IMG/VR virus record: IMGVR_UViG_3300014749_000041
Reading direction: 5' to 3' (one strand)
From: a virus
Taxonomy: Duplodnaviria; Heunggongvirae; Uroviricota; Caudoviricetes
DNA length: 9,626 nucleotides
Part shown: positions 3,827-5,740 of the stretch, in pieces
Numbering within the stretch: position 1 is the stretch's first letter
How the letters are laid out: every line of letters begins with the position of its first letter
Made by a program: the position numbers and the translations under genes
The notes under the pieces: model-generated
The model's input: only the letters and a program-made list of their open reading frames with translations
Database searches by the model: none
What the model was told of the DNA's origin: nothing

Positions 3827-4331
3827 ACAGGCTCGTGAGGCTCTGGATGCCTGGATATGTCGACCAGGAATGACACAGGAGCAGGCGACGATATTAATCA
3901 CTGAAGCATTCTGGGCTTTGAAAGAGCGCCCGAACATCGATGTTCAGCGTGTCACATATGAAGGTGGCGCGATTGATCAGCGAGCGCTTGGCGTTAATCG
4001 AGTGAAGATATTCGAACGCTGGAAGGCTATCGACACCAGGGATAAGCGTGAAAAGTTCACGGCGCTAGTGCCTGCAATTATGGAGGCTATCCGGATTAAT
4101 GATTTCAGGTTGTATCGTGAAATTACTGACGGAAAAAGCATCACGTGCATGATCGCCGGGTTAAACAAAGAATATGGCGATGTGGTGGAGTCCGGACTGC
4201 TTTTTGCTGATCCTGCCGTAGTGGATCGTGAAACTGACGAACTTATAGAAAAAGCAATTGCTTTCAAACTTGCGTATCGACAGCAATACCAACAAAAAGC
4301 TGGATGGAATTATGAGCCTTCTTTTTGCTGA
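3810..4331 (+). CDS. YdaT-family (CII-position) prophage regulatory protein, 173 aa
   Basis: ATG at 3810 overlaps the dicC 3' end by 17 nt. It occupies the cII position after the cro-like gene and loosely resembles Rac YdaT as I recall it (…WKAIDTRDKREKFTALVPAIMEAIR…). Family assignment is from memory and position only. Confidence 0.6.
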   Translation: MKITPEQAREALDAWICRPGMTQEQATILITEAFWALKERPNIDVQRVTYEGGAIDQRALGVNRVKIFERWKAIDTRDKREKFTALVPAIMEAIRINDFRLYREITDGKSITCMIAGLNKEYGDVVESGLLFADPAVVDRETDELIEKAIAFKLAYRQQYQQKAGWNYEPSFC

Positions 4332-5277
4332 ACGCCCACTGGTTATAAACACGCAGCTGGCAATGAAAATTGGCTTAAACGAAGCCATTGTTTTGCAACA
4401 ACTGCACTACTGGTTGAGAGATACCAACTCCGGCATGGAATGTGATGGTGTTCGCTGGATTTACAACACAACGGAACAATGGCTGGAACAGTTCCCATTC
4501 TGGTCAGAGTCAACGTTAAAGCGCGCGTTTGCAAGTCTGAAAACGCTGGGGCTTTTGCGTTGTGAAAAGCTCAATAAATCAAAGCGCGATATGACCAATT
4601 TCTACACGATCAACTATGGGAGCGAGCTTTTAGATGGTGGCAAATTGAGCGAATCCATCGGTTCAAAATGCGCCGCTCCATCAGGTCAAAATGACACGAT
4701 GGAAGAGGTCAAAATGAAACGCTCCATTGGTTCAAAACGACCCAATGTCATCGGGTCAAAATGGCCTGATGATCTTACAGAGAATACAACAGAGATTACT
4801 ACAGAGAATAAAAACACTTTTCGTCCGGAAGCTTCGCAACCGGACCCGCAGACGACTGAACAGGATTTTTTAACCCGGAACTCCGACGCGGTTGTGTTTA
4901 GTGCGAAAAAACGCCAGTGGGGTAGCAGGGAGGATTTGGCGTGTGCGCAGTGGATCTGGGGGCGGATCGTGGGTCTCTACGAACAGGCAGCCAGTGATGA
5001 TGGCGAGATCATGCGACCAAAAGAGCCTAACTGGACTGCCTGGGCCAATGACGTGCGCACAATGCGGATGCTGGATGGCAGAAGCCACAGACAAATTTGC
5101 GAAATGTTTGGTCGGGTTCAGCGAGATCCATTCTGGGTAAAAAACATCATGAGCCCGTCAAAGCTCCGCGAAAAATGGGACGAACTGGTCATCCGCCTGG
5201 GACGTTCACCTGTACAGCGTTGTGTTAATCATATTTCTGAACCGGATACAGAAATTCCGCCTGGTTTCAGAGGATAA
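4312..5277 (+). CDS. Phage replication initiator (O-like) with DnaT-like C-terminal domain; contains the origin iterons
   Basis: ATG at 4312 overlaps the preceding stop by 20 nt; the TTG at 4258 in the ORF track was not used. C-terminus …VNHISEPDTEIPPGFRG resembles the E. coli DnaT C-terminus (…[14 protein letters not shown]) as recalled. The mid-gene linker is encoded by a direct-repeat array. Confidence 0.75.
   Translation: MSLLFAERPLVINTQLAMKIGLNEAIVLQQLHYWLRDTNSGMECDGVRWIYNTTEQWLEQFPFWSESTLKRAFASLKTLGLLRCEKLNKSKRDMTNFYTINYGSELLDGGKLSESIGSKCAAPSGQNDTMEEVKMKRSIGSKRPNVIGSKWPDDLTENTTEITTENKNTFRPEASQPDPQTTEQDFLTRNSDAVVFSAKKRQWGSREDLACAQWIWGRIVGLYEQAASDDGEIMRPKEPNWTAWANDVRTMRMLDGRSHRQICEMFGRVQRDPFWVKNIMSPSKLREKWDELVIRLGRSPVQRCVNHISEPDTEIPPGFRG
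4655..4765 (+). repeat. Iteron array (five direct repeats of about 11 bp, 22-24 bp spacing) - candidate replication origin
   Basis: Cores GGTTCAAAATG (4660-4670), GGTCAAAATGA (4684-4694), GGTCAAAATGA (4707-4717), GGTTCAAAACG (4729-4739), GGGTCAAAATG (4753-4763); spacing is close to two helical turns. Located inside the initiator gene as in ori-lambda. Confidence 0.65.
4777..4812 (+). repeat. Three tandem A-rich 12-mers next to the iterons (candidate DNA-unwinding element)
   Basis: ACAGAGAATACA (4777-4788), ACAGAGATTACT (4789-4800), ACAGAGAATAAA (4801-4812), immediately 3' of the iteron array. Confidence 0.5.
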
Positions 5278-5317
5278 GTGTTGATTTCAGGTCATGAGGT
5301 AATTTTAAGGGGGACTT

Positions 5318-5740
5318 GTGGCAAAAGTTTTTACACAAGAAGAGCGGGAAAAAATTAAATGGCAGGTGGTGGAACTCGTGCGCCAGAGCGGCCGTGAGAC
5401 GTTACGGCAACTGGAAGCTAAAACAGGTGCGACTAGATATCTGATGAGCGTTCTTGCCAGAGAGCGGGTAGCCAGTGGCGATGTATACAACTCCGGCTAC
5501 GGGTTATTCCCCTCTGAACAGGCGCGTAAGGACTGGCAAAACGCCCGCAAAAAACTCTCGAGGGCAAAGGTGAAGAAACCTGCTGTGGTTGATCCGGACC
5601 TTATCTGGTCATCACCTGACGGAGAAATACGTCGCTACGACAGTCGCCTAAACATAATCTGTCGCGAGTGCCGGAAGAGCGAAGTTATGCAGCGCATACT
5701 GGCTTTCTATCAGGGTAATTTTCAGGACGTGGCGCAGTGA
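5318..5740 (+). CDS. Ren-like protein (lambda Ren family), 140 aa
   Basis: GTG start at 5318 with AAGGGGG Shine-Dalgarno 4 nt upstream. C-terminal …ICRECRKSEVMQRILAFYQG resembles lambda Ren (…KECRQSAAMKRVLAVYGV…) as recalled; it follows the replication gene as ren follows O/P in lambda. Confidence 0.6.
   Translation: MAKVFTQEEREKIKWQVVELVRQSGRETLRQLEAKTGATRYLMSVLARERVASGDVYNSGYGLFPSEQARKDWQNARKKLSRAKVKKPAVVDPDLIWSSPDGEIRRYDSRLNIICRECRKSEVMQRILAFYQGNFQDVAQ

Follow-up and report, generated by a model that had tools for sequence, protein, structure and literature searches.

The replication initiator encoded in the window, a stretch of 9,626 nucleotides from the Caudoviricetes record IMGVR_UViG_3300014749_000041 of IMG/VR that was analysed over its full length, ends in a peptide of 20 residues that closely matches the C-terminus of the host primosomal protein DnaT, and no gene for a helicase loader follows it. 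In related phages, the type of tail at the end of the initiator matches the type of loader gene found downstream. We consider it somewhat probable that the DnaT-like tail docks DnaC-type loaders, the partner being host DnaC in the phage studied here. The initiator, its parts and the gene that follows are listed below with their positions in the window.

4312-5277, plus strand: replication initiator, 321 amino acids, lambda-O-like (PHROG 391)
4339-4626, plus strand: winged-helix N-domain, about residues 10-105, RepA_N/DnaD-like, presumed to bind the iterons
4640-4771, no strand: origin iterons of 15 bp inside the initiator gene, spaced by 23-24 bp (repeat search, 5 copies)
4776-4815, no strand: A-rich stretch adjoining the iterons, presumed unwinding region; TACAGAGAATACAACAGAGATTACTACAGAGAATAAAAAC with a 24-nt direct repeat
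4849-5199, plus strand: helical C-domain, about residues 180-296, related to the lambda O C-terminal domain
5215-5274, plus strand: DnaT-like tail, residues 302-321, QRCVNHISEPDTEIPPGFRG, defined by its matches to DnaT; stop codon at 5275-5277
5318-5740, plus strand: DUF977/LygF/"Ren-like" gene, predicted open reading frame (ORF) of 140 amino acids (Pfam PF06163, E = 1e-28; PHROG 142, E = 4e-46)

The initiator ends in a DnaT-like tail

The C-terminus of the initiator reads ...SEPDTEIPPGFRG (also quoted as ...VQRCVNHISEPDTEIPPGFRG), followed by TAA. BLASTP aligned its residues 302-321 with residues 160-179 of Escherichia coli K-12 DnaT (14 of 20 positions identical, 18 of 20 similar, E = 9e-8). 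The match ended at the last residue of both proteins, with the peptide ..SEPDxxIPPGFRG-COOH present. A sequence-only reading of this DNA had already placed the end of the initiator close to the DnaT C-terminus, and the alignment bears this out; the protein has 321 residues rather than the 322 given there. The same reading had proposed a C-terminal DnaT domain, which profile searches did not recover, and by its own refuting condition this part of it fails. The Pfam DnaT domain PF17948 (three-helix, DnaT residues 89-154) was not found in the initiator, and the NCBIfam DnaT model NF002770 matched residues 302-321 only (profile positions 160-179 of 179, E = 0.006) with a score of 16.2 bits, far under its curated cut-off of 201 bits. 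When the C-domain without the tail was compared with DnaT C-domains profile against profile, the probability of a match was 0.3%. Outside the tail, nothing in DnaT aligned with the initiator by BLASTP, including the oligomerising N-domain and the acidic PriB-binding linker (Asp66, Asp70). The solved DnaT chains 2ru8, 6aep and 9zbt_D likewise matched over the same 20-21 tail residues. Judged by these comparisons, the resemblance to DnaT is real and limited to the tail.

The tail is predicted to be disordered (pLDDT below 50). The core IPxGFRG was kept in 109 of 120 initiator homologues, among the matches listed. The segment just before the core varies with the host genus, reading ..NHISEPDTEIPPGFRG in E. 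coli, ..DPMFKSKYECDTRIPEGFRG in Citrobacter and Salmonella and ..EDPYFKASYDNVDYSQIPAGFRG in others (columns 300-334 of the initiator-family alignment). Since only IPxGFRG is constant across these genus-dependent variants, the alignment suggests that this heptapeptide is the functional core.

Tail type matches loader type

The association between tail and loader was assessed in IMG/VR, in scans that took the best 600 candidates and the best 80 loci each, ranked by similarity to the first query. These samples come from one collection dominated by Enterobacteriaceae prophages. A first set was anchored on the tail and comprised 198 non-redundant loci with a gene ending in IPxGFRG and at least 1.5 kb of downstream sequence. 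A DnaC-like gene lay downstream in 100 of them and no loader in 98; P-like and DnaB-like genes were found in none, and this zero was unchanged with five extra P-like probes. The zero for P-like genes stands because the lambda P probe would also detect the second P-like type described below (E <= 1e-41). Loci were distributed among initiator types as follows.

Window-type initiators: no loader 50, DnaC-like 18
YdaU-type initiators: no loader 1, DnaC-like 60
Tritos/Stx-type initiators: no loader 37, DnaC-like 21
SPN1S-type initiators: no loader 9, DnaC-like 0

Among 80 loci, 10 carried a DnaC-like gene together with DUF1627 and DUF977 behind initiators 93-96% identical to that of the window, the arrangement of Rac, Gifsy-2 and Stx-phage 75/02; one further loader-bearing locus had a more diverged initiator. 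A single initiator can thus be followed by the DnaC cassette or do without it. Over their full length, the phage DnaC-like proteins share 48-51% identity with E. coli DnaC. A divergence of the tail in the presence of a phage DnaC was also looked for and gave no signal, the same tail RCVNHISEPDTEIPPGFRG occurring with and without phage DnaC.

Anchoring on the loader gave the reciprocal picture. An ORF ending in IPxGFRG lay upstream of 51 of 52 non-redundant DnaC-like genes of the Gifsy-2 type (42 found directly, 9 through other reading frames or with 2-4 trailing residues). The tail was absent from all 10 initiators anchored on lambda P, which end in ..TNTDWIYGV[DE]L, and from all 25 non-redundant loci of the second P-like type, whose initiators end in ..[HDN]WN[ST][PA][ED][GA]W[EG]xxL (..WNxxExWExxL in short); the P-anchored samples cover these two P-like subtypes. 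Fifteen of the 25 initiators of the second P-like type are members of the same family as the window initiator (E = 1e-54 to 1e-160), and their alignment with it runs to residues 297-312, just before the tail. One such homologue (P0036, 70% identity) ends in ..GDWNSADGWEDVL, and its contig (L499) carries dicA-like, cro, cII-like, initiator (4001-4975), Phage_lambda_P (PF06992) and DUF977 genes. One initiator body thus carries either tail, and the tail matches the loader type. In the E. coli host, dnaT itself ends 3 nt before dnaC.

Of note, this second portable tail ends every initiator found directly upstream of a P-type loader, in at least three initiator families (L499 4001-4975, L500-L531 upstream of position 2501, and lambda O in L016 2030-2929). 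The WNxxExWExxL or DWIYGVDL tail may be a P-docking peptide.

The tail is shared by unrelated initiators

A tblastn search of phage records with the last 27 residues of the initiator found the tail in 48 records. All came from phages of Escherichia, Shigella, Salmonella or Klebsiella except four, namely two weak matches in Rhizobium phages (E = 8) and two contigs of Salmonella draft genomes in which the match lies in host dnaT. Several of these phage genes are annotated as "Primosomal protein I", an annotation that is misleading. The tail is attached to at least four unrelated initiator C-domains and to at least three N-domain families.

Carrier type 1: lambda-O-like, window type, with a RepA_N-like N-domain
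Carrier type 2: Tritos, Evi, Stx-phage 75/02 and ST13
Carrier type 3: YdaU (DUF1376), Gifsy-2 (Phage_rep_O) and ST11
Carrier type 4: SPN1S and PAT1, with a complete DnaT C-domain

The initiators of the fourth type are 63% identical to residues 86-179 of E. coli DnaT and match PF17948 (E = 4e-18). The epsilon15-like Salmonella phage SPN1S (L007 3248-4063) and PAT1 (L012 3248-4063) thus have a DnaT C-domain as well as the tail, and no loader gene. They are stronger candidates for a genuine takeover of the restart primosome.

In nucleotide comparisons, the tail-coding 60 nt stand out as a mosaic island shared by otherwise unrelated initiator genes and flanked on either side by recombination junctions. 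Stx-phage 75/02 resembles the window in these 60 nt alone (87%). In Tritos, similarity starts at the tail and continues into DUF977 (80-97%), the upstream DNA being unrelated, and in a sister locus with a DnaC gene it ends at the stop codon. A phmmer search of the whole library with a 30-residue tail query returned 16 matches, mostly fragments of the same families, its sensitivity for so short a motif being too low.

A replication module without a phage loader

The initiator is followed, after a spacer of 40 nt, by the DUF977 gene and then by a methyltransferase fragment. No ORF of the window resembles DnaC, lambda P or DnaB, in agreement with the sequence-only reading that no P-like or DnaC-like loader follows. 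That reading had also likened the next gene to lambda Ren. The likeness is weak and only partial: PHROG 142 matches, but direct comparison with lambda Ren yields one common C-terminal motif of 20 residues (BLASTP, 50% identity, E = 2e-6; phmmer, E = 1e-3). In Pfam the gene falls in DUF977, and lambda Ren has no family there. The DUF977 gene was considered as a hidden loader and rejected as a loader substitute because its position is the same whether a DnaC-like loader, a P-like loader or none precedes it.

The same gene order, cII-like gene, initiator and DUF977, was found in mEp460_ev081 and HannyBb, and no loader-like gene precedes Q in either. HannyBb, an isolated phage, has a near-identical module. 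Its complete 45-kb genome contains no relative of DnaC, P or DnaB (phmmer, E <= 10, all ORFs of at least 40 amino acids; probes were E. coli DnaC, four phage DnaC-like proteins, lambda P and DnaB), and its other large ORFs encode QueH, a DUF968/HNH protein and an FRG-domain protein. The mEp460 phage set is reported to complete both lytic and lysogenic cycles (PMC9836094). Because viable mEp460-type phages and HannyBb carry the same module, the loader-less arrangement is functional and not a product of decay. As the module holds no phage loader, the phage must rely on the host loading machinery.

Initiator body and internal origin

The initiator matches PHROG 391 ("replication initiation O-like") over its full length (E = 1e-91) and no Pfam family at threshold. 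Its sequence equals that of the "DNA replication protein O" of Escherichia phage PhiR42_1 (100% identity), and the initiators of mEp460_ev081 and HannyBb share 98-99% identity with it. The AlphaFold model divides it into four parts with modest confidence (mean pLDDT 59). Homologue searches with the initiator and DUF977 returned close relatives only (at least 68% and at least 88% identity, respectively), and the resulting alignments are shallow. Phage_rep_O (PF04492) was not detected in the N-domain. The acidic, disordered linker (residues 110-174) is encoded by the origin and cannot be aligned to DnaT. Kinship with lambda O lies in the C-domain: that of lambda O is 36% identical to residues 170-294 of the initiator (E = 2e-16), and a phmmer search with lambda O found the HannyBb orthologue (E = 2e-23).

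The origin iterons, CATYRGKTCAAAAYG, comprise four strong copies at 4656-4670, 4679-4693, 4725-4739 and 4749-4763, and a fifth, degenerate copy near 4702-4716. A pattern scan gave 4 matches, a number reached in 0 of 200 shuffles; the consensus was drawn from the same copies that were later counted with it. The iterons translate to the repeated peptide S-I-G-S-K in the linker. By analogy with ori-lambda, the adjoining A-rich stretch at 4776-4815 presumably serves unwinding. The module follows the lambda layout, with the origin within the initiator gene. Loading assisted by DnaA was considered and is not indicated, the DnaA-box scan having shown no cluster at the origin and one match, at chance level, outside it. 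A 198-residue initiator variant (P0248) lacks about residues 64-186, that is, the end of the N-domain and the entire origin-encoded linker, and keeps the C-domain and the tail; the gap may be an origin deletion.

Genomic environment of the module

The window covers the early region of a lambdoid prophage whose immunity is of the Qin/Rac type (DicA/DicC), and window positions 3000-7000 are 99.8% identical to PhiR42_1. The other genes around the module are as follows.

3105-3512, minus strand: dicA-like repressor (NCBIfam DicA, E = 3e-70), like the next two an upstream control gene of the same early operon
3596-3826, plus strand: dicC/cro (NCBIfam DicC, E = 2e-47)
3810-4331, plus strand: cII-like/YdaT gene (PHROG 163 "CII-like", E = 6e-40)
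5737-6093, plus strand: DNA methyltransferase fragment, 118 amino acids (PHROG 954, E = 7e-58), with no part in the replication function

The cII-like/YdaT gene overlaps the start of the initiator gene by 20 nt (4312-4331). In P0001, P0002 and P0004 (448 amino acids), the two genes (window 3810-5277) are called as a single fusion, "toxin YdaT family protein". The methyltransferase ORF looks truncated, matching PHROG 954 at positions 52-165 of 229 only. The 1.4 kb after it (6100-7500) has 39-44% GC, a strong positive GC skew and no convincing ORF. A hok/sok-type locus follows at 7515-7758, with a sok RNA at 7515-7689 (114 bits) and a hok/mok-like ORF at 7627-7758 broken by a run of 10 N at 7726-7735. 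Directly after it lies a gene for a 437-residue transposase with a helix-turn-helix and an rve integrase core (7827-9140). The leftward arm carries a Qin-like dicBF operon, with the DicF antisense small RNA at 2011-2062 (minus strand, Rfam, 76.7 bits), the cell-division inhibitor DicB at 1648-1941 (minus strand) and DUF1482/YdfD at 1460-1705 (minus strand). A second run of exactly 10 N, at 490-499, breaks a long leftward ORF (477-1403) that corresponds to part of the exodeoxyribonuclease VIII (RecE-like) gene of PhiR42_1; both runs are masked sequence or assembly gaps.

Proposed role of the tail and alternative explanations

In the mechanism that we propose, the winged-helix N-domain would bind the iterons inside its own gene, next to the A-rich stretch, and the initiator would in this way mark the origin. 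The disordered 20-residue tail, ending in IPPGFRG, would dock a DnaC-type loader by mimicking DnaT. In the window phage the loader would be that of the host, DnaC with its bound DnaB, and in sister phages the phage DnaC paralogue encoded immediately downstream. The initiator would then act as an origin-bound stand-in for DnaT, an adaptor to DnaB-DnaC that bypasses PriA and PriB. We take the tail to be a loader-docking peptide because it is the only element common to all initiators that precede DnaC-type loaders and is exchanged in those that precede P-type loaders. From this pattern we infer a physical contact of the tail with DnaC or with the DnaB-DnaC complex, and the use of host DnaC as the loader. 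Since the tail is flanked by recombination junctions on either side, mismatches between tail and loader should arise if they were tolerated; none was seen. In classical lambda genetics, the contact between O and P maps to the C-terminal part of O. An interaction of lambda O with P is documented (PMC11087808). For DnaT, the available text of a 2026 cryo-electron microscopy (cryo-EM) paper assigns PriB binding to the acidic linker and PriA binding to the helical C-terminal domain, suggests the N-domain as a possible recruiter of DnaB/DnaC, mentions a genetic interaction between dnaT and dnaC, and states that how DnaT recruits DnaB/DnaC is unknown (PMC13377028).

A broader version, which we hold more tentatively and regard as possible on the sequence patterns, is that IPxGFRG-COOH serves DnaC-type loaders in general as a docking peptide and is the missing link through which host DnaT brings in DnaB-DnaC when replication restarts. 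Lambdoid initiators would carry interchangeable C-terminal address tags, with IPxGFRG directing them to DnaC-type loaders and WNxxExWExxL or DWIYGVDL to P-type ones. Phages without a loader would hijack host DnaC by mimicking DnaT and might also compete with DnaT, dampening restart of host replication.

Several points weigh against docking of DnaC by the tail. The tail-coding DNA abuts the loader gene, and the covariation could partly reflect physical linkage; the samples are phylogenetically non-independent, and shared ancestry may inflate it. The tail could bind DnaB instead of DnaC. It might also act on DNA, because deletion of DnaT residues 154-179 weakens single-stranded DNA (ssDNA) binding 2-3 fold and lowers its cooperativity (PMC4132743). 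According to the available text of the cryo-EM paper, the PriA-DnaT interface is hydrophobic and conserved, a description that would also fit IPPGF; neither the residues of the interface nor the C-terminal tail is named there (PMC13377028). The complete DnaT C-domain that accompanies the tail in the SPN1S type could mean that this lineage does engage the restart primosome. Finally, two loci (L486 and L489, about 2468-2513) have 2-4 extra residues after the motif, and the annotation of ST11-OXA245phi3.2 reads IPPGFRGGPAP. The free carboxylate may not be essential, or the extra residues may be start/stop overlaps with the DnaC gene.

The sequence-only reading had proposed a hand-off to the host restart primosome. 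Its need for the host loading machinery is upheld, and its PriA/PriB route is less supported because the PriB- and PriA-binding elements are absent and the tail covaries with loader type. In that explanation the tail would engage PriA and/or PriB, with DnaT, and DnaB would be loaded through PriA-PriB-DnaT-DnaC. The tail is indeed DnaT's own and appears confined to phages of Enterobacteriaceae, DnaT docks PriA by the conserved hydrophobic surface just mentioned, and a complete DnaT C-domain sits on the SPN1S and PAT1 initiators; phage DnaC genes are compatible with this route as well, since the PriA pathway also ends with DnaC. However, the window initiator has none of the acidic linker, N-domain and helical C-domain of DnaT. 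The intermediate cryo-EM model, as given in the available text, contains 1021 protein residues, which by arithmetic from known chain lengths leaves about 81 for DnaT; these would correspond to about the helical domain and linker, and the tail probably lies outside the modelled interface. Nor does the restart route explain the exclusion of the tail from P-type modules or its near-obligatory presence before phage DnaC. We thus rate docking of DnaC-type loaders, which we find somewhat probable, above the PriA/PriB hand-off, which appears unlikely. A trifle less probable again is that the tail binds another partner, such as DnaB, ssDNA at the opened origin, SSB, primase or a chaperone, and that its association with DnaC is indirect. 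Acidic residues followed by IPxGF loosely resemble the C-terminal tip of SSB, a phage loader is missing from half of the modules that bear the tail, and the weaker ssDNA binding of truncated DnaT would fit as well. Yet a general contact with ssDNA or DnaB would be equally useful beside a P-type loader, a combination seen in 0 of 35 P-anchored and 0 of 198 tail-anchored loci, and the two tails swap exactly with loader type inside one initiator family.

The tail could also be a passenger, the last 60 nt of the initiator gene travelling with the downstream DNA in mosaic recombination while DnaB-DnaC is recruited through the C-domain or host DnaA. The tail-coding DNA is a recombination junction, and Tritos shares it together with DUF977 behind unrelated upstream DNA; moreover, iteron plasmids, which encode no loader, rely on host DnaB-DnaC. 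Against such hitch-hiking, junctions also occur just after the stop codon, where one and the same tail may or may not be followed by the DnaC cassette, and the motif is conserved in host DnaT as well as across four or more initiator families. Neutral pairing moreover predicts IPxGFRG tails beside P-like loaders, a combination that did not occur, and the origin has no DnaA-box cluster. We regard this explanation as improbable. Decay, in which a now defective prophage would have shed its loader gene, is very improbable: the insertion element and truncated methyltransferase gene downstream, and the DnaC-like gene in a quarter of sister loci, would suit it, but mEp460 derivatives and HannyBb grow as phages with the same module, and about 50 of 68 non-redundant loci of the window's initiator family have no loader.

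Relation to known systems

The lambda O-P module resembles that of the window: the initiator gene contains the iterons and the A-rich stretch, and its product has an origin-binding N-domain, a flexible linker translated from the origin sequence and a homologous C-domain (36% identity). Both modules lie after cro and cII and before a ren-like gene. It differs in that the window N-domain is RepA_N/DnaD-like rather than Pfam Phage_rep_O and the window has no P gene; lambda O ends in ..TNTDWIYGVDL, the window initiator in IPPGFRG. Rac (YdaU-YdaV), Gifsy-2 and Stx-phage 75/02 share the tail, the operon layout and DUF977 at the end of the module with the window. They differ by a DnaC paralogue of their own, usually with DUF1627, which the window, mEp460, HannyBb, Tritos and Evi lack. 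The host dnaT-dnaC pair resembles these sister phages, the tail-bearing gene lying directly upstream of a DnaC-type gene, and DnaT, which shares its terminal 20-residue peptide with the window initiator, is a proposed adaptor for DnaB-DnaC. DnaT differs from the initiator in its oligomerising N-domain, acidic PriB-binding linker and three-helix domain binding ssDNA and PriA (PF17948), and is recruited to forks by PriA and PriB, not by iterons.

Iteron plasmids (pSC101 RepA, RK2 TrfA, R6K pi and pSK41 RepA_N) are also initiator-only systems that combine iterons with host helicase and loader, with an N-domain fold of the RepA_N type as in the window. They differ in usually needing DnaA boxes, of which the window has no cluster. 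We know of no iteron plasmid initiator of the pSC101, RK2, R6K or pSK41 type with a DnaT-like tail. The C-terminal tip of SSB is, like the tail, a short, conserved, disordered and portable docking peptide; the analogy is one of principle only, the tip having the sequence DDDIPF-COOH and known partners. DopC of Cellvibrionales and Oceanospirillales has an O-like N-terminus and a "DnaT C-terminal motif" and is encoded beside the loader gene DopE (Brezellec et al. 2017, PMC5509034). DopC differs from the window initiator in being encoded by a domesticated chromosomal gene without iterons and in having a partner that is P-like and not DnaC-like. This note on DopC was the only result of literature searches for DnaT-like tails on phage initiators, and within the searchable library no paper turned up on the phage-initiator tail, its portability or the covariation of tail and loader. 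Some of these genes already carry the label "Primosomal protein I" from annotation pipelines; the interest lies in the functional hypothesis.

The available text of the 2026 cryo-EM paper states that the hand-over from PriA-PriB-DnaT to DnaB-DnaC is unknown (PMC13377028). The most conserved segment of DnaT is its C-terminal tail, to which the literature, as far as its available text goes, assigns no partner. Phage genomes offer a natural domain-swap experiment on this segment, in which the DnaT-type tail goes with a DnaC-type loader or none and another tail goes with P-type loaders. A precise and inexpensive hypothesis follows, that the 20-residue peptide binds DnaC. If the proposed docking is true, it would explain how a common class of temperate phages of E. 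coli, Salmonella and Klebsiella replicates without a loader of its own.

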